Shown here: positions 33,077 through 50,084 of the stretch, piece by piece | Layout: every line of letters begins with the position of its first letter | How positions within the stretch are numbered: position 1 is the first letter of the stretch | Source: Pelagibacteraceae bacterium | GTDB taxonomy: Bacteria; Pseudomonadota; Alphaproteobacteria; HIMB59; GCA-002718135 | Length of the DNA: 50,084 nucleotides | Direction of reading: 5' to 3' | Assembly: GCA_018657885.1 (NCBI GenBank) | Contig: JABHWG010000137.1 | Location: 1 to 50,084, forward strand | Translations under genes and position numbers: made by a program | The notes under the pieces: model-generated | The model's input: the letters and a program-made list of their open reading frames with translations, nothing else | Told to the model about the DNA's origin: nothing | Database searches by the model: none

Positions 33077-33107
33077 TTTTATTTACCCCAGTATTAAATA
33101 TTCATTT

Positions 33108-33181
33108 TGGAGCGGGTGAAGGGAATCGAACCCTCGTAGCCAGCTTGGAAGGCTGGAGCTTTACCACTAAGCTACACCCGC
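33108..33181 (-). tRNA. tRNA-Gly(TCC)
   Basis: GCGGGTGTAGCTTAGTGGTAAAGC, CCAGC-CT-TCC-AA-GCTGG, GGTTCGATTCC, CCA; 74 nt. Confidence 0.97.
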
Positions 33182-33229
33182 TTTATATCTGACTCACTCA
33201 CTCATTACTTTTTTCCTACTCTCCATTTA

Positions 33230-33315
33230 TGGTGGAGGGGGTAGGATTCGAACCTACGTACGCTCACGCGGGCGGATTTACAGTCCGCTGCCTTTAACCA
33301 CTCGACCACCCCTCC
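33230..33315 (-). tRNA. tRNA-Tyr(GTA)
   Basis: GGAGGGGTGGTCGAGTGGTTAAAGGC, GCGGA-CT-GTA-AA-TCCGC, long variable arm, GGTTCGAATCC, CCA. Confidence 0.97.
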
Positions 33316-33332
33316 AAATTTGAAGAAAATGG

Positions 33333-33362
33333 CACATACTAATAAATTAGTATGATTGTCAA
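33333..33362 (-). promoter_or_regulatory. putative sigma70 promoter for tRNA-Tyr-Gly-tuf, overlapped by a 9-bp inverted repeat
   Basis: Perfect TTGACA (33362-33357)-N18-TATGTG; CATACTAAT-AA-ATTAGTATG at 33335-33354. Confidence 0.55.
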
Positions 33363-33486
33363 TCTAAAACAACTTACTTCCACCTTAAGTTACGAAAGTT
33401 CTTTAAAGCGGGCTCCTTTTAGACAAAAAATTAGAATTTGTATATATCTAGATTTTATTTAATGTACAAAAATAGCAAAAATTTAT

Positions 33487-34259: not shown

Positions 34260-34335
<76 letters not shown>

Positions 34336-34385: not shown

Positions 34386-34505
34386 TTAAATACCAGGAAT
34401 ATAAGGGACGCCATCTCCTTTAGCTTTTTCATTAATTTCATTTAGTGAAGAACAAGCTGTTATAGGTGATACTAACAAAAATAATAATATCAAAAGTTTT
34501 TTCAT
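34386..34505 (-). CDS. small putative lipoprotein (39 aa), below the ORF-track cutoff
   Basis: Manual translation MKKLLILLFLLVSPITACSSLNEINEKAKGDGVPYIPGI*: basic n-region, hydrophobic h-region, lipobox ITA-C; starts 4 nt after the FDH alpha stop. Confidence 0.8.
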   Translation of the reverse strand: MKKLLILLFLLVSPITACSSLNEINEKAKGDGVPYIPGI

Positions 34506-34509
34506 GATT

Positions 34510-37266
34510 TTAACTTATCTTTTCTATTTTTGCAGCGCAATATTTAAATTCTGGAATTTTTCCAAAAGGATCTAGGGCGGGATTAGTTAAAAGATTTGCA
34601 GCAGCTTCATTATAACAAAATGGTATAAAAATAACACCCTCGGGAATAGTTCTGTCTTCTCTTACTCTAATGTTAATTGAACCTCTTCTAGTTGATACTT
34701 TTATTTGATCTCCAGGTTTCATATTATTTTTTAAAATTTCATTTGGTGATATTGACACAGTCGCCACAGGCTCAAGTGCATCAAGGTTAGAGGCTTTTCG
34801 AGTCATTGCACCTGTATGCCAATGCTCCAACTGCCTTCCAGTAGTAAGTATCATTTCATAATCTTCATCTGGAACTTCATTAGGGGAAGTAACGCTTGCT
34901 GGTACAAATTTTCCTCTGCCAGTTTCATTTGGAAATTTATCTCCAAAAACTATTTCCTCTCCAGGTGTCGTAGGAGATTTACTTGGATATGTGACTGAGC
35001 TCTCTTGATCTAATCTATCCCAACTAATGTTATTTAACGAAGGCATTGTTTGTGACATCTCTTTATAAATCTCTCTAGGATGTTTATATTCCCAATTTAA
35101 ACCCATTCTTTTCCCTAGTTCATTTGTAATCCACCAGTCTTCTTTGGCTAATCCAGGCGCATCAAGAGCCTTACGTCCCATTTGGACTTGTCTATTTGTA
35201 TTAGTAGCTGTTCCATTTTTTTCTGGCCAAGCAGATGCTGGAAAAATCACATCAGCATATGTTGCAGTCTCTGTTAGAAAAATATCTTGAACAACTAAGT
35301 GTTCTAACATTTGAAGAGCTTCCCTTGCATGATTAAGATCAGGATCTGACATTGCTGGATTTTCTCCAAGAATATACATTCCTATAATTTCATCTTCATG
35401 AATTGCATCCATAATTTCCACAACTGTTAAACCTTTTTTATCATCTAAAGTTGTGTTCCAAAATTTTTCAAAAAAATCTTGCTTGTCACTTTTCTCAACT
35501 AACTGATAATCAGGATACATCATCGGTATCATTCCTGCGTCTGAAGCACCTTGAACATTGTTTTGACCCCTAAGTGGGTGAAGTCCAGCTCCTCTCCTAC
35601 CAACATTACCCGTCATCAATGCTAAAGAAATTAAACAACGTGCATTATCAGTTCCATGAACATGTTGTGAAACCCCCATACCCCAAAAAATAATACCTTT
35701 ATCAGTTTTGGCATACAGTCTTGCAACTTCACGTATCATACTAGCTTTTATTCCTGTCTGGTCTTCCATTAATTCTGGTGGGTAGTTTTTTAAATGATTT
35801 TGTAATTCATCAAATCCTGATGTCTGTTTTTTTATATATTCCTCATTAAATAAACCTTCTTCAATAATGACATTCATAATAGAATTCAGAAGAGCAACAT
35901 CTGAGCCTGATTTAAATTGCAACATATGAGTTGCATGTTTCTTTAAGGCATGACCTCTTGGATCCATTACAATAAGTTTAGATCCTTTCTTAGCCGCATT
36001 TTTGAAAAAAGTTGCTGCAACTGGATGATTTTCAGTTGGGTTAGCGCCAATAACAATTATAACTTCCGAATGCTGAACTTCATAAAATGGAGCAGTAACA
36101 GCTCCAGAACCAATCGTTTCCAATAAAGCTGCAACTGAAGATGCATGACATAATCGTGTACAGTGATCAACGTTATTTGTATTAAAACCCGTTCTAATAA
36201 GTTTTTGAAAAAGATATGCTTCTTCATTAGAACACTTAGCTGAACCAAACCCAGCTAAATTACTTTTTCCGTTTCTTTTCTTTTTAATTTCAATAAATCC
36301 ATTAGCAGCATAATCTAATGCTTCATCCCATGTAGCCTCCCTGAAATACTCATGAATATTTGAAAATTTAATAATTGGGTGTAGGTCTTTTTCTTTACCT
36401 TTAATTCTTATTAAAGGCTTAGTTAATCTCTCAGAATTGCTCACGTAATCAAAACCAAATCTTCCTTTTACACAAAGTCTATTTTTATTTGCAGGTCCAT
36501 CAACACCGTTGACAAATTTTATATCATTACCTTTAACATTATATTCAATTTGACAACCAACACCGCAATATGGGCACACGCTTTTAACTTTAGTATCTAC
36601 GTCACTTAATCCAACACCTTCTTTATCAACAACAGTTGCCGGCATAAGAGCTCCAGTTGGACATGCTTGCACACACTCTCCACATGCTACACAAGTACTG
36701 TCACCCATTGGGTCATCAAAATCAAAAACTATTTTTGAGCTTTCTCCTCTGTACGCCATGCCAATTACATCATTAACCTGCACCTCTCTACAGGCCCTGA
36801 CACAAAGATTACATTGGATACAAGCATCTAAATTTACTGCCATACTTGGGTGAGAATTATCAGACTGGCATGGAGTTTTACTTGGAAACCTACTTTCTTT
36901 TATATCAACTTTATCAATCCAATTCCAGAAATCTGAATTGTTATCATGTGCAATCTTTCTTTCTGGCTGGTCTGCTAAAAGTAATTCAAAAACTAATTCT
37001 CGAGATTTTTTTGCTTTACTTGATGCTGTTTGAACTTTCATATCAGCTGAAGGTTTTCTAATACAAGAAGCAGCTAACACCCTCTCTCCTTCAATCTCAA
37101 CCATACAAGCCCTACAATTTCCATCAGCTCTGTATCCAGGTTTATTTGCATAACACAAATGAGGAATTTCAGTACCAAGTCTATTAGCTACCTGCCATAT
37201 GGTTTCATCTTGAGTTGCCTCAACTTGCTTATCATTGAGATAAAATTTAATATTTTTATCATTCAT
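34510..37266 (-). CDS. fdhF: NAD-dependent formate dehydrogenase alpha subunit (Mo/W-bis-MGD, Cys-type, Fdh1A-like)
   Basis: N-terminal [2Fe-2S] (HLC...GNCRAC...SC), two ferredoxin motifs (CIQCNLC...C, CVACGEC...CP), CPYCGVGC...LCVKG, active site CTRLCH, PLRGQNNVQG; no Tat signal. Confidence 0.93.
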   Translation of the reverse strand: MNDKNIKFYLNDKQVEATQDETIWQVANRLGTEIPHLCYANKPGYRADGNCRACMVEIEGERVLAASCIRKPSADMKVQTASSKAKKSRELVFELLLADQPERKIAHDNNSDFWNWIDKVDIKESRFPSKTPCQSDNSHPSMAVNLDACIQCNLCVRACREVQVNDVIGMAYRGESSKIVFDFDDPMGDSTCVACGECVQACPTGALMPATVVDKEGVGLSDVDTKVKSVCPYCGVGCQIEYNVKGNDIKFVNGVDGPANKNRLCVKGRFGFDYVSNSERLTKPLIRIKGKEKDLHPIIKFSNIHEYFREATWDEALDYAANGFIEIKKKRNGKSNLAGFGSAKCSNEEAYLFQKLIRTGFNTNNVDHCTRLCHASSVAALLETIGSGAVTAPFYEVQHSEVIIVIGANPTENHPVAATFFKNAAKKGSKLIVMDPRGHALKKHATHMLQFKSGSDVALLNSIMNVIIEEGLFNEEYIKKQTSGFDELQNHLKNYPPELMEDQTGIKASMIREVARLYAKTDKGIIFWGMGVSQHVHGTDNARCLISLALMTGNVGRRGAGLHPLRGQNNVQGASDAGMIPMMYPDYQLVEKSDKQDFFEKFWNTTLDDKKGLTVVEIMDAIHEDEIIGMYILGENPAMSDPDLNHAREALQMLEHLVVQDIFLTETATYADVIFPASAWPEKNGTATNTNRQVQMGRKALDAPGLAKEDWWITNELGKRMGLNWEYKHPREIYKEMSQTMPSLNNISWDRLDQESSVTYPSKSPTTPGEEIVFGDKFPNETGRGKFVPASVTSPNEVPDEDYEMILTTGRQLEHWHTGAMTRKASNLDALEPVATVSISPNEILKNNMKPGDQIKVSTRRGSINIRVREDRTIPEGVIFIPFCYNEAAANLLTNPALDPFGKIPEFKYCAAKIEKIS

Positions 37267-38962
37267 AACTTATCTCTTTTTCAAAGTATTTTAAAACTGA
37301 ATTGAGTGGATTTGTAGCTGCTTGACCTAAGCCACAAATAGAAGCTTGGGACATTACTTCTGACAAATCAGAGAGTTTTTCTTTATTCCAAATTTTTTCT
37401 TTCATAAGCTTTACAGTTTTTTCTGTTCCAGCTCTACATGGAGTACATTGACCACAGCTTTCTTCTTCAAAAAATTTTAATAAATTTAATGCGACATCTT
37501 TCATATTATCCTTATCAGATAAGACAACAATTGCAGCAGAGCCTAAAAAACACCCTGTATCTGTTAATTCTTTTGATCCATAATCTAAGGGAATGTTATT
37601 CATTGAAGCAGGCAAAATACCTCCTGAAGCACCGCCTGGAAGATAACCTTTAAAGACATGGTCATCTTCTATGCCACCACAATAATCATCTATTAATTGC
37701 TGTATCGTAATTCCTGCTGGAGCAACTTTTACCCCAGGATTCTTAACACGACCAGATACAGAAAAACTATGAAAACCTTTTTTACCATCTATACCTTTTT
37801 CAGAGAACCAATTAGGACCTTTTTCAATTATATCTCTGATCCAAAACAATGTTTCTAGATTGTTGGTTAATGTGGGAGCGTTAAATAAACCCATTTCAGC
37901 AACATAAGGAGGTCTATGTCTTGGAAGACCTCTTTTACCTTCAATACTCTCTATCATAGCAGACTCTTCACCACATATATATGCTCCAGCACCTCTTCTT
38001 AAAATAAAATGTCCTTTTGGAATTATATTTTCTTTTTCTAATTTTAAAATTTCATCATTTAAAATTTGAATTACTGAGGGATACTCATCTCGCATATAAA
38101 TATAAACATTAGTTGCTTTGATAAACAGTGATGCAATAAGTGCCCCTTCCAGAAATCTATGAGGGTCTGTTTCTAAATATTTTCTATCTTTAAATGTCCC
38201 AGGCTCACCCTCATCTCCATTTACCGCTACATATTTTGTTCCATTGTACTTAGATACAATTTCCCATTTCATGCCTGTTGGAAAACCAGCTCCACCTTTA
38301 CCTTTAAGGCCACTTTCTTTTAGATACTCGATTATTTTTGTGTTTTGTATTTCTCCTTTTTTGATTTGGTTGGATATTTTATACCCTCCATCTTTTCTAT
38401 AATCATCCAAAGAAATATAATCGGGAATGACAACATCAAAATTTTTATTTTTTAATGCCTCTTCAACAGTTTTTAATGATGCTTTATCTACATAGTTTTT
38501 ACCTACACAAACAGTTGGCGCTACATCACATCTGCCCATACAGGGACCAGGGACTACTTTTATATTTTTATTTTCATTTTTTTTTAGATCACTAAGTAAT
38601 TTTTTTGCACCAAATAATTCACAAGTTAAACTTTCACAAACTCTTACAGTTTTAAGAGGTTCATAAGTTTCTGAATTTTTTACTATGTTAAAATGTGCAT
38701 AAAAAGTTGCTACTTCGTAAATTTCAGAAAGTGGTAAATTTATTATCATTGATAATGCAACTAGATGTTTGTCATATAAGACACCAAACTTATCCTGCAA
38801 TATATGAAAATATTCAATTAATTCGTCTCTCTTAAAACTCATTCCTTGAAATAGCGTTGATACCTCATCATAAAAGAGGTTTTCTACCTGTCTTCCTTTT
38901 GGTTTCCATCGTCTCTTCTTTTTCTTTAGAGAGCTATCGGTTTGAGAAATAAATTTATCCAT
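37259..38962 (-). CDS. formate dehydrogenase beta subunit (fused NuoE-like [2Fe-2S] and NuoF-like FMN/NAD domains, Fdh1B-like)
   Basis: PKGRQV, EVATFYAHF, VCESLTC...CMGRC, GKGGAGF, DEGEPGTFKD, GAYICGEE, SCGQCTPC...ICGLG. Confidence 0.9.
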   Translation of the reverse strand: MDKFISQTDSSLKKKKRRWKPKGRQVENLFYDEVSTLFQGMSFKRDELIEYFHILQDKFGVLYDKHLVALSMIINLPLSEIYEVATFYAHFNIVKNSETYEPLKTVRVCESLTCELFGAKKLLSDLKKNENKNIKVVPGPCMGRCDVAPTVCVGKNYVDKASLKTVEEALKNKNFDVVIPDYISLDDYRKDGGYKISNQIKKGEIQNTKIIEYLKESGLKGKGGAGFPTGMKWEIVSKYNGTKYVAVNGDEGEPGTFKDRKYLETDPHRFLEGALIASLFIKATNVYIYMRDEYPSVIQILNDEILKLEKENIIPKGHFILRRGAGAYICGEESAMIESIEGKRGLPRHRPPYVAEMGLFNAPTLTNNLETLFWIRDIIEKGPNWFSEKGIDGKKGFHSFSVSGRVKNPGVKVAPAGITIQQLIDDYCGGIEDDHVFKGYLPGGASGGILPASMNNIPLDYGSKELTDTGCFLGSAAIVVLSDKDNMKDVALNLLKFFEEESCGQCTPCRAGTEKTVKLMKEKIWNKEKLSDLSEVMSQASICGLGQAATNPLNSVLKYFEKEISYE

Positions 38963-39002
38963 TTAAATTGAATTATTAATATATATTTTGTATCAGATTA
39001 AA

Positions 39003-39251
39003 ATGAAAGATTCAGTTGAAAATGATGAAATAGTTCTAGATACAAGCGGTACAGAATGTCCCATCCCAGTGCTTAAGGCTAGAAAACTTGCTCAAGAATT
39101 AAAAAATGGTAGCATAATCAAAGTGATAGCTACTGACCCCTTGGCAACAGCTGACTTCGAGCACTATTGTAACCAATCAGGTTTTGATTTTTTAGAAAGT
39201 TACAATGAGGATGAAAAAATTATAATTAGATATAAATTTAAAAAAAATTAA
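39003..39251 (+). CDS. tusA: TusA/SirA-family sulfur carrier
   Basis: LDTSGTECPIPVLKARK (CPxP motif), ATDP; ATG at 39003 preferred over TTG at 38988. Confidence 0.88.
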   Translation: MKDSVENDEIVLDTSGTECPIPVLKARKLAQELKNGSIIKVIATDPLATADFEHYCNQSGFDFLESYNEDEKIIIRYKFKKN

Positions 39252-40465
39252 ATAAACAATTTATCAAAATCATAAAAATCAAACACATCACCCTTTTTAA
39301 TAAGGTTTATATTTTCAGGAATTTCGACTACTCCATCTGAATATGAAATAGAAGATATCATACCTGAACCCTGTTTAGGGTATCTAGATATAAAATATTC
39401 ATTATTAATTAATTTTTTTGAAACCCTTAACCACTCAAGTCGTTTTGTTTTTTTAACCATTGAAAAGTCAGTCTTAATTTTTTCTGATGTAATCTTTAAC
39501 ATTGGTGAACCAATTAATTTTAGAATTAAAGGTCTAACTACAAATGCAAATAGCAACTGTACAGAAACAGGATTGCCAGGCAAACAGACAATATAAGTAT
39601 TTTTTATTTTACCTATTGCAATAGGCCTTCCTGGTTTAATGGCAGCTCGCCAAAAAAAAATTTTACCATTATTTTTTAAAGTATCAATTAAATGGTCTTC
39701 ATCTCCCACCGATGCTCCACCAGTGGTAATTATAAGGTTATATTTAGGTATTTGAGACAATATTTTAGTTTTAATCTTAACGGAGTTATCCGGAAGATTT
39801 CCTAAAAACTTCTTATCTATATAATTTTTATTTAAAAGGGAGCTTAATAAATAATAATTTGAATTATTAATTTTAGAATTTTTTAGTTTTATAGTTGGTT
39901 TTACTAACTCATTACCACTTGTAAAAAATCCAACTTTAAGTGAGGAATAAACTTTCACTTTATTGCATCCAATAGCTGCAATTAAATTTAAATTTCTACT
40001 GTCAATTTTAGATCCTTTTTTTAAAACCAAACTTCCTTTTGATATATCCTCCCCTTTTTGCCTGCAATTATCCCCATACAAAGGAATTTTTAATAAAGAG
40101 AGCTCAACATCAACAACATTTGTATTTTCTTGCATAACTACCGTATTAGAGTTTGATGGCATTTTTGCACCTGTAAAAATTCTTATAACTTCACCATCTA
40201 GAATTTTACTTGTTCCAATATCACCTGCTGCTATTCTATTTTTATTAATTTTTTTTTGTCTTTTATTCAAATCTTTTTTTAATAATGCGTATCCATCAAC
40301 TGCTGAGTTTTTAAAAGGAGGTAAATCTATTTTAGAGTAAATATTTTGTGCTAATATTTTATCTTCAGCATCAATTAGATTAATTATTTCTGTTTTAGAT
40401 ATAGTGCTAGGGCGCTTACTTATAAATGCTAAAATTTCTTTTAAATAAAGTGGTTTTTTGTTCAT
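39248..40465 (-). CDS. moeA: molybdopterin molybdotransferase (Mo/W insertase)
   Basis: PPFKNSAVDGYA, RIFTGA, SGNEL, TTGGASVG, KPGRP, LPGNPVS. Confidence 0.95.
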   Translation of the reverse strand: MNKKPLYLKEILAFISKRPSTISKTEIINLIDAEDKILAQNIYSKIDLPPFKNSAVDGYALLKKDLNKRQKKINKNRIAAGDIGTSKILDGEVIRIFTGAKMPSNSNTVVMQENTNVVDVELSLLKIPLYGDNCRQKGEDISKGSLVLKKGSKIDSRNLNLIAAIGCNKVKVYSSLKVGFFTSGNELVKPTIKLKNSKINNSNYYLLSSLLNKNYIDKKFLGNLPDNSVKIKTKILSQIPKYNLIITTGGASVGDEDHLIDTLKNNGKIFFWRAAIKPGRPIAIGKIKNTYIVCLPGNPVSVQLLFAFVVRPLILKLIGSPMLKITSEKIKTDFSMVKKTKRLEWLRVSKKLINNEYFISRYPKQGSGMISSISYSDGVVEIPENINLIKKGDVFDFYDFDKLFI

Positions 40466-40947
40466 AATATTTTTTTAATTATAAATTCAACTAAACTTTT
40501 AATTTCATTTTTTTTAAATACAGGAGTATTAGAATAGAGCATTACATCAGAAACAATTGCTATAACATTTTTAATTTTGCTATTAGATATTTCTAAGTTA
40601 TTTGCAATTATTTCAATTTTTGGATGAATTTCATTCTTAAAACCTTCTACAATAATTATATCTATATATTCAAATTCCTCAATTAGCTCTTTTAAGCTTT
40701 TTTCCCTGTTATCAATATTTTCATTTATTTTTGCCCAACGCCTTGAAGAACTAATTATGACCTGACTAGAACCAGATTCTCGATGTTTAAAACTATCAGT
40801 TCCAGGTTTATCAATATCAAAGTCATCATGAGCGTGCTTAATAGATCCTACTCTATAATTTTTAGCAACCAATAATTTAATTATCTCAGTTACAAGATAA
40901 GTTTTTCCAACATCTTTCCAACCAACTATTCCAATTACTCTAGTCAT
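40462..40947 (-). CDS. mobB: molybdopterin-guanine dinucleotide biosynthesis protein B
   Basis: GWKDVGKT P-loop, IKHAHDDFDIDKPGTDS, VEGFK. Confidence 0.95.
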   Translation of the reverse strand: MTRVIGIVGWKDVGKTYLVTEIIKLLVAKNYRVGSIKHAHDDFDIDKPGTDSFKHRESGSSQVIISSSRRWAKINENIDNREKSLKELIEEFEYIDIIIVEGFKNEIHPKIEIIANNLEISNSKIKNVIAIVSDVMLYSNTPVFKKNEIKSLVEFIIKKIL

Positions 40948-41633
40948 ATTTTTCTCTTATTAAAAATATAGACTAAAGAATATATAATAATTGTTAATAA
41001 AATTAATACTATTCCAAGTGCCATTGCGTATTCAAGATTTCCCATTCTTGTTTCAAGTGAAATCGCAGTTGTCATCACTCTTGTAAAATGGTTAATATTT
41101 CCACCAACTATCATAACAGCTCCGACTTCTGAAATAGCTCTGCCAAATGCCGAAAGAAGGGCTGTTATAACTAAAAAGTAACTGTGTTTTGTAATAATAA
41201 AAGCTACTCCAAAAAAAGGCATATTAATGGATCTTAACTGATCTTTATATTCTCTCCAATTTTGATCAAAAATTTCATGTGATATAGAAGTCACAATTGG
41301 AAAAATAATTATTACTTGCGCAATTATCATAGCAGCTGGTGTGTAAAGTAATTGTAGAACACCGAGAGGGCCACCTGATGCAAACATAAAGTAAACAATT
41401 AATCCAACTACAACTGGAGGAATTCCCATCAATGAATTGAGGATAATTAAAATAAAATTTTTAAAAAAAAAATTTCTTAATGCTAAATAATAACCAATTA
41501 ACAATCCAAAAATTGAAGCAAAAATTAATGCAACAAGACTGACGTATAAAGATAAAAGTATAATTTCCCACAAATCTTTATCAAAAGAAAAAATTAAGGA
41601 TAAAGATTCTGTGAAAATTTCTATAATGTTCAT
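40944..41633 (-). CDS. tupB: ABC transporter permease, tungstate TupB-like
   Basis: MGIPPVVVGLIVY, GPLG..LLYTPAAMIIAQ, FGRAISEVGAVMIVGGNI..FTRVMTTAISLET; lies among cofactor genes. Confidence 0.8.
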   Translation of the reverse strand: MNIIEIFTESLSLIFSFDKDLWEIILLSLYVSLVALIFASIFGLLIGYYLALRNFFFKNFILIILNSLMGIPPVVVGLIVYFMFASGGPLGVLQLLYTPAAMIIAQVIIIFPIVTSISHEIFDQNWREYKDQLRSINMPFFGVAFIITKHSYFLVITALLSAFGRAISEVGAVMIVGGNINHFTRVMTTAISLETRMGNLEYAMALGIVLILLTIIIYSLVYIFNKRKI

Positions 41634-41657
41634 ATAAAGATATTATCAGAATACATT

Positions 41658-42476
41658 ATGAATAAAAAAATTAAATATTTAGTTGCTCCTAATCCTCAAG
41701 ATAAAAATCTTACCAAGGAAATAGATGGATTTGATGAGAATTTAAAACCAATTAAAACAAAAGTTATTATTGAAAAAGATCTTACAATTTATTTAAATAA
41801 TCAAGAAATTGTAACCCTTATGACAGTTGGTGATCATCCTGAATACCTTGCTCTTGGTTATTTACTAAATCAGAATATGATAAAAATAACTGATAAGATA
41901 AAAAAAATTGAACATAACCAAGAATTACGAGTTGTAGTAGTAAGGACATCAAGAAAAACTAACTATGAAGAAAAATTGAAGAAAAAAATTACTACTAGTG
42001 GGTGTGCGGTTGGAACAATTTTTGGAGATGTGTATGAAGAAATTTTAAAAAGCAAAATTCTATCCAAAAAGAAAATTAAACATTCTTGGATTTACGAAAT
42101 ATCAAAGAAAATAAATTTAACTCCAAGCTTGTATTTAGAAGCTGGGGCTATTCATGGATGTGCTATCATCAAAAATAATAATCCAATTATTTATATGGAA
42201 GATGTGGGACGCCATAATGCAGTTGATAAAATAGCAGGATATATGTTTCTTAAAAAAATTAATGGGAATGATAAAACTTTTTACACAACAGGAAGACTTA
42301 CTAGTGAAATGGTTATAAAAACTGTAAAAATGAAAATTCCTATTCTAATTTCAAGATCAGGCTTTACCTCTTGGGGAGTAGAGTTAGCAAAAAAAACAAA
42401 CCTTACTCTAATTGGAAGAGCAAAAGGTAAAAAATATATAATCTTATCAGGTGAAAAAAGAATTGATCATAAATAA
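41658..42476 (+). CDS. fdhD: formate dehydrogenase accessory sulfurtransferase
   Basis: TTSGCAVG, GAIHGC, EDVGRHNAVDKIAG, TGRLTSEMVIK. Confidence 0.95.
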   Translation: MNKKIKYLVAPNPQDKNLTKEIDGFDENLKPIKTKVIIEKDLTIYLNNQEIVTLMTVGDHPEYLALGYLLNQNMIKITDKIKKIEHNQELRVVVVRTSRKTNYEEKLKKKITTSGCAVGTIFGDVYEEILKSKILSKKKIKHSWIYEISKKINLTPSLYLEAGAIHGCAIIKNNNPIIYMEDVGRHNAVDKIAGYMFLKKINGNDKTFYTTGRLTSEMVIKTVKMKIPILISRSGFTSWGVELAKKTNLTLIGRAKGKKYIILSGEKRIDHK

Positions 42477-43086
42477 ATTAAAAACACTTATTGTTATTCT
42501 CGCAGGAGGGCAATCAAAACGATTTGGAGGTGGTTATAAAACTTTATATAAATTTAATAATAAATCATTACTGGACAGGATATTAAAAAATTTAGGAAAG
42601 TTAGATATTGAAATTGCCTTAAATGTAAACTCAAATGAAAATGAATTTACAAAAACAAGTTTGAATCTAATTAAAGATGAGTTTGTTAACTTTCAAGGGC
42701 CTCTTGCAGGAATATACTCATCAATGAATTGGGCTTTAAAAAACAAAAAAGATGTTGAATGGATTTTTACCACACCTTCAGATACACCTTTTTTAAATAG
42801 TAGTTTAGTGGATAAATTTTTAATTAATAAATACTCAAACAATACTAAAATAATTTTAGCCAGAACTTCTAATAAAATTCATCCAGTTATTGGTTTTTGG
42901 CATATTTCATTATTAAAAAACTTAGAAAATTTTTTAGAAAAAGATAGTAGAAAAATTATGCATTGGGTAGAGCAACAAAATTATGAATTGCTAAATTTTG
43001 AAAATAAAAACTATTTTTTTAATATCAATTCTAAATCAGATTTAGAAGAGGCAATCAAAATTGAGAAGTCAATAAAATTACCATAA
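42451..43086 (+). CDS. mobA: molybdenum cofactor guanylyltransferase
   Basis: ILAGGQSKRFGG, QGPLAGI, PSDTPF, FFNIN; start codon uncertain (GTG 42451 or TTG 42463). Confidence 0.93.
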   Translation: MKKELIINKLKTLIVILAGGQSKRFGGGYKTLYKFNNKSLLDRILKNLGKLDIEIALNVNSNENEFTKTSLNLIKDEFVNFQGPLAGIYSSMNWALKNKKDVEWIFTTPSDTPFLNSSLVDKFLINKYSNNTKIILARTSNKIHPVIGFWHISLLKNLENFLEKDSRKIMHWVEQQNYELLNFENKNYFFNINSKSDLEEAIKIEKSIKLP

Positions 43087-43134
43087 TTAACTGGATAATA
43101 TTAATAATAAGAATATAAATTAATACTAGAAATC

Positions 43135-44049
43135 ATGTCAATTTATCTCCCTATCGCCGAAATGAATGTTAACATATTCTTAATCGTTTTTATTGGTATG
43201 CTTGTTGGGGCTTTATCTGGTTTATTTGGTGTAGGTGGTGGTTTTTTGATGACTCCTTTTTTAATTTTTTTAGGCATACCTCCTGTTGTTGCTGTAGGTT
43301 CAGAAGCACCTCATGTTTTAGCTTCAAGTGTGTCTGGAGTTATAGCACATTGGAGAAAAAAAAATGTAGATTTTAAAATGGGTTTTTTTTTACTATTAGG
43401 AGGTGTTGCTGGCTCAACACTTGGGGTAAATATTTTTAAATTATTAAGTTCATATGGTCAGATAGATATTGTAATTCAATTTTTATTTATAATTTTCTTG
43501 GGCTTCATTGGTATATCAATGGCTTTTGAAAGTGCGAGAACTACAATCAAAAACTATCGGACAACTTCAGCGATTAGAACCAAATTGCACCAACATTCTT
43601 GGATACATGGCCTTCCTTTCAAACTTAGATTTCATCGTTCAAAATTATATATCTCCACAATTCCACCAATAATAATTGGTTTTTTTGTTGGAGTATTATC
43701 AGCCATGATGGGTGTAGGGGGAGGTTTTATAATGATACCCGCAATGGTTTATATTTTAGGCATGTCAACAAATGTTGTTGTTGGTACTTCTTTATTTCAA
43801 ATTATTTTTGTGACAGCAAATTCAACTTTTTTTCAATCTTATTTAAATCAAACAGTGGATATTGTTTTATCCGCTCTTATGATTCTTGGTGGAGTTATAG
43901 GTGCGCAAATTGGTGTAAGGATTGGCTCTAAATTAAAAGCAGAATATTTAAGAGGTATTTTAGCAATTTTAGTTTTACTAGTTTGTGCAAAAATATTAAC
44001 AGGTTTAATTTTAACTCCATCTGATTTGTTCACAACTTCAATATTGTGA
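43135..44049 (+). CDS. TauE/SafE (TSUP) family putative sulfite exporter
   Basis: MSIYLPIAEM start; duplicated GLFGVGGGFLMTP / AMMGVGGGFIMIP repeats; multiple TM segments. Confidence 0.88.
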   Translation: MSIYLPIAEMNVNIFLIVFIGMLVGALSGLFGVGGGFLMTPFLIFLGIPPVVAVGSEAPHVLASSVSGVIAHWRKKNVDFKMGFFLLLGGVAGSTLGVNIFKLLSSYGQIDIVIQFLFIIFLGFIGISMAFESARTTIKNYRTTSAIRTKLHQHSWIHGLPFKLRFHRSKLYISTIPPIIIGFFVGVLSAMMGVGGGFIMIPAMVYILGMSTNVVVGTSLFQIIFVTANSTFFQSYLNQTVDIVLSALMILGGVIGAQIGVRIGSKLKAEYLRGILAILVLLVCAKILTGLILTPSDLFTTSIL

Positions 44050-46979
44050 TGAACCCATTTAAAAATCAAACAGAGGAAGTTCAAACATCACCCAAGGTAA
44101 GTGATGAGATAAAACAAACTACATGTTTCATGTGCGCTTGCAGATGTGGTATTAATGTCCACTTATTAGATAATAAAATAAGATACATCGAAGGTAATAA
44201 AAATCATCCAACTAACAAGGGCGTACTATGTGCAAAAGGTTCTGCTGGAATTATGCAGCAAAACTCTCCTGCTAAGTTAACAAAACCACTTCTGAGAACT
44301 GGAGAGAGGGGTAAAGGGGAATTTAAGGAAATTGAATGGTCTGAAGCTATGGAAATTGCTACAACTTGGTTATCAGAAATTCGAAACACTGATCCCAAAA
44401 AACTAGCATTTTTTACTGGAAGAGATCAAAGTCAATCATTAACTGGTTGGTGGGCCAATCAATTTGGCACATGTAATTTTGCAGCCCATGGAGGTTTTTG
44501 CTCGGTCAATATGGCAGCTGCAGGATTATATACAATAGGTGGTTCTTTTTGGGAATTTGGAGAAGTTGACTGGGAGCACACTAAATATTTTATTTTGTTT
44601 GGATGTGCAGAAGACCACCATTCAAATCCAATAAAAATGGGATTAGGGAAACTTAAATCTAAAGATGATAGTAAATTTGTATCTATTAACCCAATTAAAA
44701 CAGGGTACTCAGCTATAGCGGATGAATGGATTGGCATACGACCAGGCACTGATGGTTTGCTAGTCCATAGTATTATTTACGAATTATTAAAATCAAATAA
44801 AGTTGATTGGGAGTATCTTAAACGTTACACAAATTCAAATTGGCTCGTTTACAATAACCCTGGAAAAGAAAATCATGGTTTATTTGCAAGAGATGAAAAC
44901 AATTCTCCTCTTGTATACTGTAAAGATAATAAAAAAATAACTACGACAAAAGATCAGAATTCTAATTCTGCTTTTTTTGGAAAATACAAATATAATAATT
45001 TAGAGGTTATTCCATCTTTTGAATTACTATCAAAAGAATATTTAAAACCAAAATATAAACCTGAAAATATTTCTAGTTCCATTGATGTAGAAGTCGATGT
45101 GATAAAAAGAATTGCTGCAGAAATAGCTGAAACTGCATTTGAAAAAGAGATTGAGATTAAAGTTGAATGGGAAGATTTTAATGGAAAAAAAAATTCTTCT
45201 TTTAAAGGAAGGCCAGTTTCAATGCACGCCATGCGCGGTATTTCAGCTCACTCCAATGGATTTAATACTTGCAAATTAATTCATATTCTTCAAACCCTAC
45301 TTGGGTCAATTGATGTTCCAGGGGGTTTTAGGTACAAAGCGCCATATCCAAAGCATGTTGTTCCAGGCCCAAAACCAGCTGGTAAAATAGTTAAAGCAAA
45401 TACTCCAATTGGAGGAATGCCTCTTGGCTTTCCTACCTCACCAGATGATTTGTTAACTGATGACAATGAAAACCCATTAAGAATAGATAAAGCATATAGT
45501 TGGGAAAATCCTTTATCTGCTCATGGATTAATACATATGGTAATCAATAATGCATGGAAGGGCGATCCGTACAAAATTGATGTACTTTTTATGTACATGG
45601 CAAATATGGCTTGGAACTCTTCTATGAATACAAAGGAAACGATAAAAAAATTAACAGATAAAGACAAAGATACTGGGGAATATAAAATCCCTAAAATAAT
45701 TTATAGTGATGCTTATTATTCAGAGACAGTTCCTTATGCTGACTTAGTTTTACCAGATACGACTTTTCTTGAAAGATGGGATTGCATATCACTCTTAGAT
45801 AGGCCAATAAGCTCTGCTGACAGTGCTGCAGATGCCATAAGGCAACCTATTATCAAACCGTCAAGAGATGTGAAACCATTTCAAGATGTTTTGATTGAGT
45901 TAGGGGCTAGACTGGGGCTTCCTGGATTTGTAAACGAAGATTTCTCAGCTAAATTTCCTAATGGGTATAGTGACTATATTGTTAATCATGAAAGACAGCC
46001 TGGTGTAGGTCCTTTGGCAGGATGGAGAGGAGATGGTAATGAATTTGGAAAGGGTGCGATCAACAAGAATCAAATTCACGAATATATAGATAATGGCTGT
46101 TTTCATAGTCATGAATTTAGTGAAAATCAAAAATATTTTAAGTTTACAAATAAAGCTTATTTAGATTTTGCACATGAAATGGGTTGGATTGCCAAAAATG
46201 AACCTATTGTTATGCAATTATATAGTGAAGAAATGCAAAAATTTAGATTAGCAGGAGAGGGTTTCGGTAAGAAAATTCCTCCAGATCATTTAAAAGAAAG
46301 AATTATAAAATATTTTGATCCAATCCCTTCCTGGTATCAACCATTCGAAGAAAAATTAAATGCAGATAATAATAAAATTTATGAATTATATGCCGTGACT
46401 CAAAGACCTCCACACATGTATCATTCTTGGGGCTCTCAAAACGCTTGGCTAAGACAAATAACTAATTTAAATTATTTGTATATTAGTAAACATATTGCAA
46501 AAACAAATAATCTCAAGAATTTTGATTGGGTTTGGCTCGAGAGTTTTAGTAGTAAAATAAAAGTTCAATGTAAAATCATGCAAGGAGTTAATAAAAATAC
46601 TGTATGGACATGGAACGCTATTGGTAAAAGAAAAGGTGCTTGGAACTTAAGTCCCGACGCTCCAGAATCGAACAAAGGTTTTTTATTAAATCATTTAATC
46701 TCTGATGTTCTTTCAAATGCAAGCAACAAAAATTCAATAATATCTAATTCAGATCCCATAACCGGTCAGGCCGCTTGGTATGACTTAAAAGTAAAGATTT
46801 ATAAATGTAGTGATGAAGAGAATGATGGAAAAATTTACCCAAGTTTTGAAATAATTAAAAATAATTCAAGAAGAAATATTTCTATTAATGATTATGGCAA
46901 ACAATTTCCAAAAGAATATAGTAAGAATAATTTAACTAAAATTAAAGAATTCATCGGAAACAGCAAAAATATAAAATGA
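44049..46979 (+). CDS. soeA: sulfite:quinone oxidoreductase molybdopterin subunit
   Basis: TTCFMCACRCG...LCAKG [4Fe-4S], FFTGRDQSQ, AHGGFCSVNMAAAG, HAMRGISAHSNGF, MYHSWGSQNAWLRQI, SDPITGQAAWYDL; no Tat peptide; TGATG overlap with tauE. Confidence 0.88.
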   Translation: MNPFKNQTEEVQTSPKVSDEIKQTTCFMCACRCGINVHLLDNKIRYIEGNKNHPTNKGVLCAKGSAGIMQQNSPAKLTKPLLRTGERGKGEFKEIEWSEAMEIATTWLSEIRNTDPKKLAFFTGRDQSQSLTGWWANQFGTCNFAAHGGFCSVNMAAAGLYTIGGSFWEFGEVDWEHTKYFILFGCAEDHHSNPIKMGLGKLKSKDDSKFVSINPIKTGYSAIADEWIGIRPGTDGLLVHSIIYELLKSNKVDWEYLKRYTNSNWLVYNNPGKENHGLFARDENNSPLVYCKDNKKITTTKDQNSNSAFFGKYKYNNLEVIPSFELLSKEYLKPKYKPENISSSIDVEVDVIKRIAAEIAETAFEKEIEIKVEWEDFNGKKNSSFKGRPVSMHAMRGISAHSNGFNTCKLIHILQTLLGSIDVPGGFRYKAPYPKHVVPGPKPAGKIVKANTPIGGMPLGFPTSPDDLLTDDNENPLRIDKAYSWENPLSAHGLIHMVINNAWKGDPYKIDVLFMYMANMAWNSSMNTKETIKKLTDKDKDTGEYKIPKIIYSDAYYSETVPYADLVLPDTTFLERWDCISLLDRPISSADSAADAIRQPIIKPSRDVKPFQDVLIELGARLGLPGFVNEDFSAKFPNGYSDYIVNHERQPGVGPLAGWRGDGNEFGKGAINKNQIHEYIDNGCFHSHEFSENQKYFKFTNKAYLDFAHEMGWIAKNEPIVMQLYSEEMQKFRLAGEGFGKKIPPDHLKERIIKYFDPIPSWYQPFEEKLNADNNKIYELYAVTQRPPHMYHSWGSQNAWLRQITNLNYLYISKHIAKTNNLKNFDWVWLESFSSKIKVQCKIMQGVNKNTVWTWNAIGKRKGAWNLSPDAPESNKGFLLNHLISDVLSNASNKNSIISNSDPITGQAAWYDLKVKIYKCSDEENDGKIYPSFEIIKNNSRRNISINDYGKQFPKEYSKNNLTKIKEFIGNSKNIK

Positions 46980-47716
46980 CATCTTTGCCAAAAAAACAAA
47001 ATAAAAAACTTGGTCTCGTAATTGATTTAGATATCTGTGTGGGTTGCCATGCCTGTGCCGTAAGCTGTAAAGAGTGGAATACATCAGGACATTCATCGCC
47101 CCTTCATGATATCGATCCATACGGTGATGATCCAACTGGTGTTTGGTTTAATAGAATTCATACATTTGAAGTTGAAAATGAGATTAATGGAAGTAAAACA
47201 GTGCATTTTCCAAAGAGCTGTTTACATTGCAGCGATGCTCCATGTGTAACAGTTTGCCCAACTGGTGCTTCCTACAAAAGAGAAGAAGATGGGATTGTTT
47301 TAGTCAACCCAGATACTTGTATTGGATGTAAATTGTGTTCGTGGGCATGCCCATATGGTGCCAGAGAATATGATGAGGAGGCAGGCATAATGAAAAAATG
47401 CACTTTATGTGTAGATAAAATATACAACGAAAATTTGCCAGAAAGTGACAGAGTTCCTGCTTGCGTATCAACTTGTCCAGCAGGAGCAAGAAGCTTTGGT
47501 AACTTAGGGGATGAAAACTCTGAAATATTCAGGTTAGTCGAAGAAAGAAATGGATATGATCTTATGCCTGAACAAGAATGTGCTCCGACAAATAAATACC
47601 TTCCGCCAAGAGAGAAAAATGATCAGTTTAGTAGTGACAAATTAAGTTCCGTGACTCAAGACAATGATTTCACCTTTGAAACATGGAAAGAAATAATCAA
47701 AGATGCATCCAAGTAA
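46976..47716 (+). CDS. soeB: SoeB four-cluster [4Fe-4S] subunit
   Basis: CVGCHACAVSC, CLHC...CVTVCP, CIGCKLCSWACP, CTLC...CVSTCP. Confidence 0.88.
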   Translation: MTSLPKKQNKKLGLVIDLDICVGCHACAVSCKEWNTSGHSSPLHDIDPYGDDPTGVWFNRIHTFEVENEINGSKTVHFPKSCLHCSDAPCVTVCPTGASYKREEDGIVLVNPDTCIGCKLCSWACPYGAREYDEEAGIMKKCTLCVDKIYNENLPESDRVPACVSTCPAGARSFGNLGDENSEIFRLVEERNGYDLMPEQECAPTNKYLPPREKNDQFSSDKLSSVTQDNDFTFETWKEIIKDASK

Positions 47717-48647
47717 GTCTACAATATTTTTTACTGTATTTTCTGGAACTGGTTACGGGATAATACTATGTCTTTCTTGCCTCTCATTAATTACACAGAT
47801 AAATTTTGATAGTGATTTTAAATTAATTCTTATTATTGTAAGCTTTGCTTTTATTTGCTCTGGACTACTATCATCAACTCTTCATTTGGGTCACCCTGAA
47901 AGAGCTTGGAGATCTTTTAGTCAATGGAAATCCTCTTGGTTATCTAGAGAAGGCTTAGCAGCGATTTTTACTTTTATCCCTTTGGTGTTATTTTATCTTC
48001 TTTGGTATCTTGAAAATAATCTTTTTATATTTTTTTTGCATCTTTCTTCTATTTTATGTTTAGTAACAGTCTACTGTACTGGTCAAATATATGCTACTTT
48101 AAAAACTATCCCTGTGTGGAACAATAAACTCGTCACACCTATTTATATAATTAATGCCATATGTATGGGAGCGCTTAGTATCTACTGTTTGGCTTGCTTT
48201 TATGAAGTTAAGGTTATCTATTTATATCATTTAACTATTTCAAGTTTAGTATTGTGTTTATTTTTCAAACTTACTTATTGGTATTATATTAATAAAAATA
48301 CTAAAAGCACTGCAAATTCTGCAACAGGATTAGGTGGGAAAAATAAAAACGTATCATTATTTGAAGGTCCACATACAGGAAAAAACTTTTTAACTACTGA
48401 AATGATAAATAAAATTAAAAAAGAAAAAGCAAATTTTTTAAGAGTATGCTTTTCGATATTAACGTGCGTGTTACCTATTTATATGATTGTACAAGAAGCA
48501 AGTCTTATAATTGATATCTTTATATTAAAATTATCTTTTTTTATAATTTTTATTTTTGCGATAATTGGCATGCTGATTGAAAGATATCTATTTTTCATTC
48601 AAGCAAAGCATGTGGTAAGTTTATACTATGGGGAAAACAAGGTATAA
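47703..48647 (+). CDS. soeC: SoeC membrane anchor (DmsC/NrfD family)
   Basis: MHPSKSTIFFTVFSGTGYG, HLGHPERAWRSFSQWKSSWLSREG, ERYLFF; about 8 TM segments. Confidence 0.87.
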   Translation: MHPSKSTIFFTVFSGTGYGIILCLSCLSLITQINFDSDFKLILIIVSFAFICSGLLSSTLHLGHPERAWRSFSQWKSSWLSREGLAAIFTFIPLVLFYLLWYLENNLFIFFLHLSSILCLVTVYCTGQIYATLKTIPVWNNKLVTPIYIINAICMGALSIYCLACFYEVKVIYLYHLTISSLVLCLFFKLTYWYYINKNTKSTANSATGLGGKNKNVSLFEGPHTGKNFLTTEMINKIKKEKANFLRVCFSILTCVLPIYMIVQEASLIIDIFILKLSFFIIFIFAIIGMLIERYLFFIQAKHVVSLYYGENKV

Positions 48648-49391
48648 ATGCAGTATAAAATTTATAAATTAAGTATTTTTTTAATTATTGTTTTTTTTAC
48701 TAAAATAATTTTTGCCCAAGCTTACTTTGATCTATCAGAAAATAATATAAAAATTAAAACAGATTTTAATGGAAAAGAAATAATTGTATTTGGAATTTTA
48801 AATGATGAACAAGAAACTTTAATAACTATAAAAGGTCCTGAAAAAAAAGCAGTAATAAATAAAAAAGAAAGAATTTTAGGTTTTTGGTTCAATACTAAAA
48901 AAATTACTTATAATAAAGTCCCAAGTATTTTTTTTATTGCCTCATCAGCTGAACTTGAAGATATCTTACCCACTTCAACTTTAATAAAACAAGAACTCAG
49001 TTTTGACTATTTACTTGAAAATAAATTATCAAAAAGAAATTTTATATCAAACTCTACTCTTAAAAATTGGAAAGATAATTTTATCAGAATAAAAAAAAAT
49101 AAAAATTTATTCAAAAAATATCAAATAGATAAAATTGAAAATAAACTTTTTCAAACAAGAGTATTCTTTCCCGCTGAATCTTTACCAGGGGAATATAAAA
49201 TTAATGTTTATCAAATAAAAGATAACATAATTATTAACATGAAGGAAAAAACTATAACATTAGCTAAATCAGGAATAGGAAGTAAAATATATGATTTTGC
49301 TCACAATAATTCAGCAGCTTATGGTTTGTTTGCAATTATTTTTGCTATATTGTCAGGTTTTTTAGCTGCTTCAATGTTTAGGAGATTATAA
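48648..49391 (+). CDS. conserved alphaproteobacterial membrane protein (TIGR02186-like)
   Basis: Signal-like N-terminus; IKTDFNGKEIIVFG, KKERILGFWFN, C-terminal TM helix AYGLFAIIFAILSGFLA..FRR. Confidence 0.8.
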   Translation: MQYKIYKLSIFLIIVFFTKIIFAQAYFDLSENNIKIKTDFNGKEIIVFGILNDEQETLITIKGPEKKAVINKKERILGFWFNTKKITYNKVPSIFFIASSAELEDILPTSTLIKQELSFDYLLENKLSKRNFISNSTLKNWKDNFIRIKKNKNLFKKYQIDKIENKLFQTRVFFPAESLPGEYKINVYQIKDNIIINMKEKTITLAKSGIGSKIYDFAHNNSAAYGLFAIIFAILSGFLAASMFRRL

Positions 49392-49864
49392 TGAATGATA
49401 ATAGATACATACTTGTAATAGCTGATAATTCTAATGAGATGGAAATAGCCCTTGAGTATGCTTGTGCAAGATCAAAAAAAACAAGTAGAAAAATTATTAT
49501 TGCAACATTTATCGAACCTTTGGATGTTTTAACAACACAAGGTGTTACTGAAATTATGAAAAACGAAGCAAGAGATACTGCGGAGTTACTTCTTCAAAAG
49601 GCTGCCAGTCATGTCAAAGATAAAACAGGTGAAATGCCAGCATTAGCTATAAGAGAGGGTGAAACGATTACTGAATTAAAAAAACTTATAGAGGAAGAAA
49701 AAAATATTAATGTTTTAGTATTGGCAGCAAATTCTGATCCTAAAAACAAAGATTCAAATACAATAATTAATTCTCTTCTTAGTCAAGAAATAACAAATAT
49801 GAGAATTCCTATTATGATTGTTCCAGGTAATTTTTCTAAAGATCATATTGCGTTGATTAGCTAG
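49391..49864 (+). CDS. universal stress protein (Usp family)
   Basis: ILVIADNS..ALEYA, IREG, VLVLA, IPIMIVPG. Confidence 0.85.
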   Translation: MNDNRYILVIADNSNEMEIALEYACARSKKTSRKIIIATFIEPLDVLTTQGVTEIMKNEARDTAELLLQKAASHVKDKTGEMPALAIREGETITELKKLIEEEKNINVLVLAANSDPKNKDSNTIINSLLSQEITNMRIPIMIVPGNFSKDHIALIS

Positions 49865-49866
49865 AA

Positions 49867-50084
49867 ATGTCTGAAATTGTTGCTGAAAAACTAATTGATA
49901 TTAAATCAGTTCAATTCTCTTTTAATAAGCATTTTACCCTAACATCAGGCCTTAAGTCTCCAGTCTATGTAGACTGCCGAAAAATTATTTCATTTATTGA
50001 TGAGAGAGATTTTATTATGAATGAGGCAGTAGAATATTTTAAAAAAAATAATTTAAATTTTGATTTAGTTGCTGGAGGAGAAAC
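49867..50084 (+). CDS. pyrE: orotate phosphoribosyltransferase (3' end runs off the window)
   Basis: Manual translation MSEIVAEKLIDIKSV...FTLTSGLKSPVYVDCRKIIS...VAGGET. Confidence 0.92.
   Translation, partial: MSEIVAEKLIDIKSVQFSFNKHFTLTSGLKSPVYVDCRKIISFIDERDFIMNEAVEYFKKNNLNFDLVAGGE

Follow-up and report, generated by a model that had tools for sequence, protein, structure and literature searches.

A shared locus for formate dehydrogenase and SoeABC-type sulfite dehydrogenase genes in a HIMB59 marine alphaproteobacterium, best read as inherited gene order

Sulfite dehydrogenases of the SoeABC type have been characterised in Allochromatium vinosum (Dahl et al. 2013) and Aquifex aeolicus (Boughanemi et al. 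2020); as described in excerpts of PMC8076601, SoeA binds a bis(pyranopterin guanine dinucleotide) (bis-PGD) cofactor and one [4Fe-4S] cluster, SoeB carries four clusters, SoeC is NrfD-like, and an export signal is absent. A link between soeABC, xsc and taurine is likewise already in print, to judge from the excerpted literature. On the formate side, a fdhF-fdsB-fdhD-mobA-moeA cluster ends folate-linked one-carbon (C1) oxidation in the SAR11 strain HTCC1062 (Sun et al. 2011, in the excerpted portions of PMC3160333). Here, we describe a 50,084-nucleotide stretch of DNA (the window; contig JABHWG010000137.1 of the Pelagibacteraceae assembly GCA_018657885.1) in which genes for a formate dehydrogenase (FDH) linked to nicotinamide adenine dinucleotide (NAD), a candidate SoeABC, and the enzymes that mature their bis(molybdopterin guanine dinucleotide) (bis-MGD) cofactor are joined in a single locus. 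The window is the complete contig C127 of the genome bin G000 (1.63 Mb, 168 contigs, 84% complete, ~30% G+C), and its host falls in what we take to be the AEGEAN-169/HIMB59 order of abundant, little-cultured marine bacteria.

A first-pass annotation of the window, made from the sequence alone, had proposed that the two enzymes could form a terminal module harvesting electrons from both the carbon and the sulfur of C1-sulfur compounds and organosulfonates. Our best reading is that the fdh-soe adjacency reflects gene order inherited within one family, and not a dedicated carbon-plus-sulfur module. We assign a probability of about 60% to a model comprising an order-wide FDH/cofactor block, an adjacent TauE-TIGR02186 gene pair, a family-specific slot for a sulfite cassette, and one shared cofactor supply.

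The phylogenetic distribution of the individual parts is central to this model. FdhA was detected in 32 of 36 genomes of the same genus and in 20 of 24 genomes of the sister family, and SoeA in 3 and none of the same sets, respectively. Across 116 species of the family, SoeA was found in 10 of the 104 other species of the genus and in none of the 11 species representing seven other genera; wherever it occurs within the family, it lies exactly between tauE and TIGR02186. Twenty FdhA loci were fetched, and those without soeAB preserve the order FdhA-FdhB-TusA-MoeA-MobB-TupB-like-FdhD-MobA-TauE-TIGR02186-Usp; in loci of the sister family, tauE runs straight into TIGR02186, the two sharing 8 bp. 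Because the rest of the block persists where soeAB is missing, soeABC fills exactly the space between tauE and TIGR02186. The block of FDH, cofactor, TauE, TIGR02186 and Usp genes is conserved across the order, with tusA staying beside fdhB in soe-less relatives and in two of three sister-family loci, and with usp coming after TIGR02186 in relatives too. Full soeABC is present in two clades of one genus, which make up SoeA identity groups of 85–87% and 74–75%. Soe-less relatives of one clade have another gene between mobA and tauE, coding for a YeiH-family ‘putative sulfate export transporter’ (PF03601, 232 bits; L087 8639–9733, and likewise in ten more soe-less loci); the window lacks this gene.

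A wider scan for SoeA, taking one genome per species, yielded 80 loci with flanks of up to 10 kb, many of which were ended by contig ends. Only five of these, all from single-cell genomes and with 73–86% SoeA identity, have the full fdh-soe gene order; the remaining 75, from alpha- and gammaproteobacteria, show 56–63% SoeA identity. FdhB, MoeA, MobB and FdhD were absent from the available flanks of these 75 outside loci. FdhA matches were present near two of them (L033 and L050), at the 24–26% identity expected of paralogues, a TusA homologue was near soeABC in ten, and MobA was near one, as a weak match.

Within the family, the slot between tauE and TIGR02186 can be occupied differently. In a relative of the same genus (G033), it holds genes for an AprM-like membrane protein, AprB and AprA, together with two small genes. 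AprBA with AprM constitutes a route of AMP-dependent sulfite oxidation through adenosine 5′-phosphosulfate (APS); the AprA and AprB names follow the NCBIfam models TIGR02061 and TIGR02060. AprA was found in 10 of the 104 other species of the genus and in 10 of the 11 species of other genera. Twelve further AprA loci divide into five, from five other genera, in which aprMBA sits in the slot directly beside the FDH block, and seven in which it adjoins cysQ; within 20 kb, four of the latter also encode an aminotransferase and Pta, and two of these four an alanine dehydrogenase. Counting that of G033, aprMBA occupies the slot in six loci, each of a different genus. Because AprBA, which relies on flavin adenine dinucleotide (FAD) and Fe-S clusters, requires no molybdenum cofactor, a shared cofactor cannot define the slot. 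Sat (TIGR00339) was not found in any of the five genomes examined. An APS-kinase-like P-loop protein accompanies aprMBA (L101 7092–8016; L095 9564–10058), and a small nucleotidyltransferase-like protein adjoins the copy on contig C32 of G000.

In genomes without soeAB, an open reading frame (ORF) of 125–139 amino acids in the slot shows homology to SoeC over that protein's C-terminal half; most other loci keep nothing more of soeABC. These half-SoeC ORFs match the SoeC of the window with BLASTP E values of 2e-24 to 4e-6, and four of eight, three of them from other genera, match a hidden Markov model (HMM) of SoeC proteins from outside the family (E values of 3.5e-10 to 1.1e-5). The matched positions, ~150–205 and ~250–306, correspond to the second four-helix bundle, less one of its loops. 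Identity over the aligned parts, which in the hmmalign alignment amount to under 60 residues per ORF, is 39–60% to SoeC of the family and 25–37% to the best outside SoeC. The half-soeC ORF is intact in all 11 loci of one clade, and its ratio of nonsynonymous to synonymous substitution rates (dN/dS) of 0.28–0.52, compared with 0.01–0.25 for flanking genes, does not settle whether it is a working gene. These remnants suggest that soeABC entered the slot early in the family and was later reduced to half-soeC, with or without the arrival of aprMBA. The node of the locus tree that is key to the number and order of these events, including the soeAB losses, orders L004 against L085 and has a support of just 0.335.

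Gene identities were assigned by Pfam and NCBIfam profile searches of the window proteins at curated cut-offs (Table 1). Positions 34510–49864 hold fourteen tightly packed genes, with gaps between neighbours of −26 to +48 bp, preceded in the window by a ribosomal-protein/rpoBC/tuf block and then tRNA-Thr. The genes form four strand groups: fdhB-fdhA (−), tusA (+), tupB-like-mobB-moeA (−) and fdhD-mobA-tauE-soeABC-TIGR02186-usp (+). Every gene named in the first-pass annotation was recovered in its place, with no gap exceeding 48 bp. Its interval, 34386 to 49864, holds those genes, begins in the spacer after tRNA-Thr and takes in at its end the TIGR02186 and usp genes that it had left unnamed. 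Two of its labels are weaker than written: ‘tupB’ stands as a Tup-like permease (NF038017 above cut-off) and falls short of the TupB equivalog (142 bits against a cut-off of 320), and ‘W-type’ holds as a call by orthology to a solved tungsten enzyme. Both of its enzymes proved credible, FdhAB through full-length matches to solved structures and SoeABC through its three-subunit, signal-less build.

Table 1. Features of the fdh-soe locus (window positions) and half-SoeC ORFs of relatives (positions in the named loci).
Feature	Assignment	Position	Strand	Evidence or context
fdh1A (FdhA)	NAD-linked formate dehydrogenase catalytic subunit	34510–37266	−	TIGR01591 750 bits, cut-off 666
fdh1B (FdhB)	NuoE-NuoF fusion diaphorase subunit, flavin mononucleotide/NAD site	37259–38962	−	Pfam 2Fe-2S_thioredx, Complex1_51K, SLBB, NADH_4Fe-4S
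tusA	small sulfur-carrier protein	38988–39251	+	PF01206 60.7 bits
moeA	Mo or W insertion into molybdopterin	39248–40465	−	Pfam MoeA_N, MoCF_biosynth, MoeA_C
mobB	MGD-synthesis adaptor	40462–40947	−	TIGR00176 151 bits, cut-off 76
tupB-like	Tup-like ATP-binding cassette (ABC) permease, candidate for tungstate or molybdate	40944–41633	−	NF038017 218 bits, above cut-off
fdhD	FDH-maturing sulfurtransferase	41658–42476	+	PF02634 245 bits; TIGR00129 144.7 bits, cut-off 140.9
mobA	molybdenum cofactor guanylyltransferase	42451–43086	+	TIGR02665 162 bits, cut-off 151.85
tauE	TauE/SafE (TSUP) family membrane transporter	43135–44049	+	PF01925 184 bits, cut-off 32.6
soeA	bis-MGD catalytic subunit	44046–46979	+	Pfam Molybdop_Fe4S4, Molybdopterin, Molydop_binding
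soeB	four-cluster iron-sulfur subunit	46976–47716	+	Pfam Fer4_11
soeC	NrfD/DmsC-type membrane anchor, predicted quinone-reducing	47703–48647	+	PF04976 66.7 bits
TIGR02186	TIGR02186/Alph_Pro_TM protein	48648–49391	+	PF09608 190.8 bits
usp	universal stress protein family, end of conserved block	49391–49864	+	PF00582 30.2 bits
half-SoeC ORFs	homologous to the C-terminal half of SoeC	L087 10708–11115; L083 9570–9947; L095 13829–14242; also L111, L113, L114, L110		between tauE or aprM and TIGR02186

The arrangement is not an assembly artefact, since the whole gene order is identical in the five single-cell-genome loci and 14 marine metagenome runs, one of which may be the source of the window, contain 0.87–0.97 of the sampled words of 40000–49900. 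Base composition does not flag the soe genes as foreign (G+C 0.33–0.35, equal to fdhA), and a promoter and terminator scan of this AT-rich DNA was uninformative, its 86 promoter-like sites comparing with an expectation of 86.6 and its 5 terminator-like sites with one of 7.2. Outside the fourteen genes, tRNA-Gly and tRNA-Tyr lie upstream of tuf (33108–33315), and tRNA-Thr (34260–34335) is located between rlmB and the 3′ end of fdhA.

The identity of the sulfite enzyme was approached through its build. Of three adjoining genes, the first encodes a bis-PGD subunit bearing a single Fe-S motif, the second a ferredoxin with four clusters and the third a haem-less anchor of the NrfD kind. SoeA possesses Cys27, Cys30, Cys34 and Cys62, SoeB has sixteen cysteines in four groups, and the first 50 residues of both are devoid of a twin-arginine (RR) motif; this motif check was the export-signal test for the two subunits, and in the absence of the motif a cytoplasmic orientation is predicted. 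These features make the set a credible SoeABC of three-subunit, signal-less build. A 442-amino acid Oxidored_molyb protein (180 bits), of the size of SorA/SorT-type sulfite oxidases, is encoded in a soe-bearing relative (G020, contig C2, 100282–100767) ~62 kb from its fdh-soe locus; G000 has just a ~326-amino acid member of this family, on contig C102.

The FDH half is more closely tied to solved structures. FdhA displays the Pfam order Fer2_4, Fer4, Molybdop_Fe4S4, Molybdopterin and Molydop_binding, that is, a NuoG-like Fe-S N-terminus followed by a bis-MGD domain. Among solved structures, it is matched best by 7vw6/8j83, ‘Tungsten-containing formate dehydrogenase alpha subunit’ (1342 bits, residues 6–914), and FdhB by 7e5z_B, the ‘Tungsten-containing formate dehydrogenase beta subunit’ (669 bits, residues 18–561); the matches to the molybdenum enzyme FdsA/FdsB of 6tg9 are far weaker, at 554 and 234 bits. 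The PDB entries 7vw6, 8j83, 7e5z and 7xqw are, we presume, FDH1 (Fdh1AB) of Methylobacterium/Methylorubrum extorquens. Residues 369–374 of FdhA read CTRLCH, placing the metal ligand Cys373 before His374 in a stretch identical to that of the aligned tungsten enzyme; the ligand is cysteine and not selenocysteine because the frame has no in-frame stop codon. The alpha-subunit domains, the NuoE-NuoF beta fusion and the Cys-His ligand, which are the three sequence hallmarks of NAD-linked FDHs of the Fdh1AB type, are thus all present, and ‘W-type’ is a fair orthology call for an enzyme whose bound metal is not readable from its sequence.

Metal supply and cofactor assembly were examined alongside. 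The TupB equivalog model NF041773 scores the permease of the locus at 142 bits, under its cut-off of 320, and a TupA-like binding protein encoded away from the locus reaches 224 bits against 400 in the relative G020, the G000 copy being cut by a contig end. Because both equivalog scores fall short and an ATPase gene was not identified beside either gene, we name the system Tup-like and not TupABC. ModA was not found in any of the five genomes examined. The moeA gene of the locus is the sole PF03453 match in G000, and the gene for MoaC is located elsewhere in the genome. G000 encodes further candidate molybdenum enzymes, namely a NuoG-like protein, the Oxidored_molyb protein and NarGHJI. The narGHJI genes are complete on contig C80 (L103 931–12366), accompanied by two NarK transporters, with NarG scoring 2208 bits against TIGR01580. 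NarG was found in none of 60 relatives; contig C80 may represent a strain-specific low-oxygen adaptation or be mis-binned, and we make no use of it in the argument.

The two genes that frame the slot are a pair well beyond this family. Of 30 loci drawn from as many alphaproteobacterial families (L118–L147; 49–62% identity), 29 have tauE directly upstream of TIGR02186 on the same strand, and the PF09608 score exceeds its cut-off in 103 of the 151 alphaproteobacterial families that were sampled. The TIGR02186 protein has two hydrophobic segments, at residues 5–23 (an N-terminal signal or anchor) and 226–244 (a C-terminal membrane helix). A model of the TauE and TIGR02186 complex returned an ipSAE of 0.71 (runs 0.71–0.73), as against 0.00 for the best of three controls, with a contact agreement of at least 95% and a partner pLDDT of at least 74; the ipSAE mark applied is reached by 116 of 157 solved complexes and by 2 of 215 mismatched pairs. 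The two proteins are therefore predicted, on the strength of this model, to bind each other. In four loci outside the family, the pair is located just upstream of soeABC, a second, independent hint linking TauE-TIGR02186 to sulfite handling. TauE itself has reportedly been proposed, in the work of the Cook and Denger groups, as the sulfite exporter of the taurine pathway. A fusion of the two genes was rejected as a candidate: where a single long ORF spans the two genes, as in 3 of the 30 loci, their matches lie in different frames.

The genome was also queried for sources of the two substrates. The taurine/sulfoacetaldehyde pathway proceeds through Tpa, Ald, Xsc and Pta, and Xsc yields acetyl phosphate and sulfite, not formate. 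Contig C32 of G000 (L101 and L102) encodes alanine dehydrogenase, an omega-aminotransferase, phosphate acetyltransferase, AprM-like, AprB, AprA (TIGR02061, 990 bits), CysQ and a GMC oxidoreductase, and the last 90 residues of Xsc are found at its very end. Xsc scores above cut-off in 28 of 36 genomes of the genus and in none of 24 of the sister family; on account of this difference, the breakdown of two-carbon (C2) sulfonates to sulfite appears as a genus trait and sulfite oxidation as an optional add-on. Fhs, a source of formate, is encoded in all five genomes examined, and the methanethiol oxidase family PF05694 was found in none of the five. Among the 116 family genomes, SoeA and AprA occur together in G000 alone.

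Indications of expression come from contigs of four RNA libraries of four studies, which contain pieces of fdhA, fdhB, tauE, soeA and usp with 0–1 differences and span the tauE/soeA (43864–44089) and soeA/soeB (46953–47186) junctions; stretches without such cover carry no meaning. These contigs fit transcription of both halves in the sea; they do not show strand, ends, level or co-regulation. RNA-library depth is very high over 33000–33569.

Taken together, a working scheme for the locus can be drawn from family knowledge. Fdh1AB would oxidise formate arising from the folate-linked C1 route through Fhs to CO2, reducing NAD+. A cytoplasm-facing SoeABC would oxidise sulfite released by Xsc from C2 sulfonates of the taurine and isethionate type, passing the electrons to quinone. 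The two enzymes would share the sole MoeA, MobA/MobB and the Tup-like metal supply and would otherwise be separate, with different substrates and different electron entry points; TusA and FdhD would serve sulfuration of the FDH cofactor, and TauE and TIGR02186 would probably assemble into a single membrane transporter of a sulfur oxyanion. Within this scheme, the substrates, the way in which electrons flow and what TauE does are inferred.

Three other explanations have to be weighed against inherited gene order. The co-regulated terminal module of the first-pass annotation, taking electrons from the formate carbon and the sulfite sulfur of organosulfur substrates, is possible but unsupported, and we consider it unlikely. 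A Soe or Apr cassette is kept beside the FDH block in at least six genera, both fdh and soe pieces occur in the RNA libraries, and the genome does hold a source of each substrate, Fhs for formate and, for sulfite, the alanine dehydrogenase, omega-aminotransferase, Pta and truncated Xsc of contig C32. Against these points, fdhAB is divergent, on the strand opposite soeABC, and the FDH and cofactor genes persist without Soe in most relatives: the sister family retains the FDH block with neither a sulfite enzyme nor Xsc, and SoeA and AprA both went undetected in about four-fifths of the species of the genus, though FdhA is common. The two halves hence do not behave as a unit, nor does their synteny reach beyond the family, the available flanks of the 75 outside soeABC loci holding no FDH orthologue, FdhB, MoeA, MobB or FdhD. 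The C1-sulfur idea fares no better, since methanethiol oxidase was found in none of five genomes and the carbon product of Xsc is acetyl phosphate. Moreover, conserved adjacency is weak evidence because gene order is generally well conserved in the family. The annotation's fallback, that clustering reflects only the shared cofactor, would place soeABC here because SoeA needs bis-MGD from moeA, mobA and mobB, with joint inheritance and expression as the outcome. The only MoeA of the genome is indeed in the locus, soeABC follows fdhD-mobA on the same strand after a 48-bp gap, and the failure to find ModA in five of five genomes makes metal supply through the Tup-like system likely. This explanation is nevertheless improbable as the cause of the clustering: the same slot holds the flavoprotein system AprMBA in six loci of six genera, NarGHJI, if truly of this genome, lies on another contig, and MoeA and MobB occur in the available flanks of none of the 75 outside loci, with MobA in one, weakly.

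A further alternative concerns the enzyme itself, which could be another Psr/Phs-type oxidoreductase, acting on thiosulfate, polysulfide or tetrathionate, and not a sulfite dehydrogenase. The nearest solved fold family of SoeA is PsrA/PhsA (2vpw, 125 bits), and no curated NCBIfam model passes, the best PhsA/PsrA-type match reaching 211 bits, below its cut-off of 694; the searched libraries are without a curated SoeA model. We regard this identity as very improbable, given that the twin-arginine-free SoeA and SoeB are predicted to face the cytoplasm, unlike Psr, Phs and Ttr (as described in the excerpts of PMC8076601), that SoeA is 61–62% identical to proteins that the Joint Genome Institute names ‘sulfite dehydrogenase (quinone) subunit SoeA’, that SoeC matches the HMM of 56 soeABC-linked SoeC proteins from outside the family over its full length (301.6 bits), and that the slot alternates in relatives with AprMBA, another sulfite-oxidising system.

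Several points weigh against inherited gene order as the preferred reading, or against the scheme built on it. In several genera the slot has kept its place beside the FDH block, whichever of the two cassettes it holds, so that a functional tie between formate and sulfite is possible, and the co-directional placement of soeABC, 48 bp of spacer separating mobA from tauE, makes co-transcription with the FDH maturation genes possible. SoeA is tied to the characterised enzymes through features and not through sequence, and a curated NCBIfam model covering it does not exist among those searched. Contig C32, with Xsc and Apr, could come from a co-binned close strain in a bin that is 84% complete and split over 168 contigs; most members of the genus have Xsc without Soe or Apr, so that sulfite oxidation is optional for the pathway; and the RNA-library contigs may include carried-over DNA.

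A bolder version of the preferred reading would have TauE-TIGR02186 act as a two-subunit sulfite/sulfate transporter across Alphaproteobacteria, the gap between the two genes serve in this family as a recombination site at which SoeABC and AprMBA are exchanged, half-SoeC persist as an extra membrane component, and the FDH adjacency mark a coordinated electron-scavenging island for C1 compounds and sulfite in streamlined plankton. We offer this extension as speculation and consider it doubtful as a whole.

The locus introduces no new enzyme class, and both enzymes, as well as the soeABC-organosulfonate link, are already in print. Its interest lies in separating members of the group that are able to gain energy from organosulfonate-derived sulfite, with about a tenth of the genus having Soe and about a tenth Apr, from those that presumably export the sulfite, and in the evolution of the sulfite-oxidation trait, whose gains, replacements and losses all fall at one slot of the genome. 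It also furnishes a first functional context for TIGR02186, with its presence in 103 of 151 alphaproteobacterial families sampled; the searched literature did not mention TIGR02186, PF09608 or Alph_Pro_TM. The same literature mentioned neither sulfite together with the host bacterial group nor a locus joining fdh and soeABC in bacteria of the SAR11 type. The portions of the literature covered, in which no search was aimed directly at either, made no mention of a slot alternating between Soe and Apr or of a half-SoeC gene. An AEGEAN-169 paper (PMC10308909) mentions a tungsten transporter plus FDH, and, as far as its excerpted main text goes, the words ‘sulfite’, ‘sulfur’ and ‘taurine’ do not occur in it.

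Set beside the described systems, the locus recombines familiar parts. Its FDH resembles FDH1 of M. extorquens in its two subunits, Cys-His motif and NuoE-NuoF beta subunit; in the marine enzyme, tungsten finds indirect support in a below-cut-off Tup-like permease and in the failure to find ModA. The left half of the locus and the HTCC1062 cluster are alike in joining FDH subunits to fdhD, mobA and moeA, with Fhs giving formate, and the HTCC1062 cluster, as described in the excerpted PMC3160333, is without tusA, mobB, a Tup-like permease, the TauE pair and a sulfite enzyme. Ald, an aminotransferase, Pta and Xsc are all encoded in the genome, as in the taurine/sulfoacetaldehyde pathway, and a TauE-family gene flanks the candidate sulfite oxidase; unlike the TauE of taurine operons, this TauE is the orthologue of the TIGR02186-paired gene. 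AprBA/AprM is, like SoeABC, a cytoplasmic sulfite-oxidising system of the identical slot, also encoded on contig C32 of G000, and differs from it in belonging to a flavoprotein class without molybdenum cofactor. SoeABC of A. vinosum and A. aeolicus, likened here by the features described in the excerpts of PMC8076601, shares all of those features with the set of the locus, whereas the operon described here sits, next to an FDH block, in the gap between tauE and TIGR02186.

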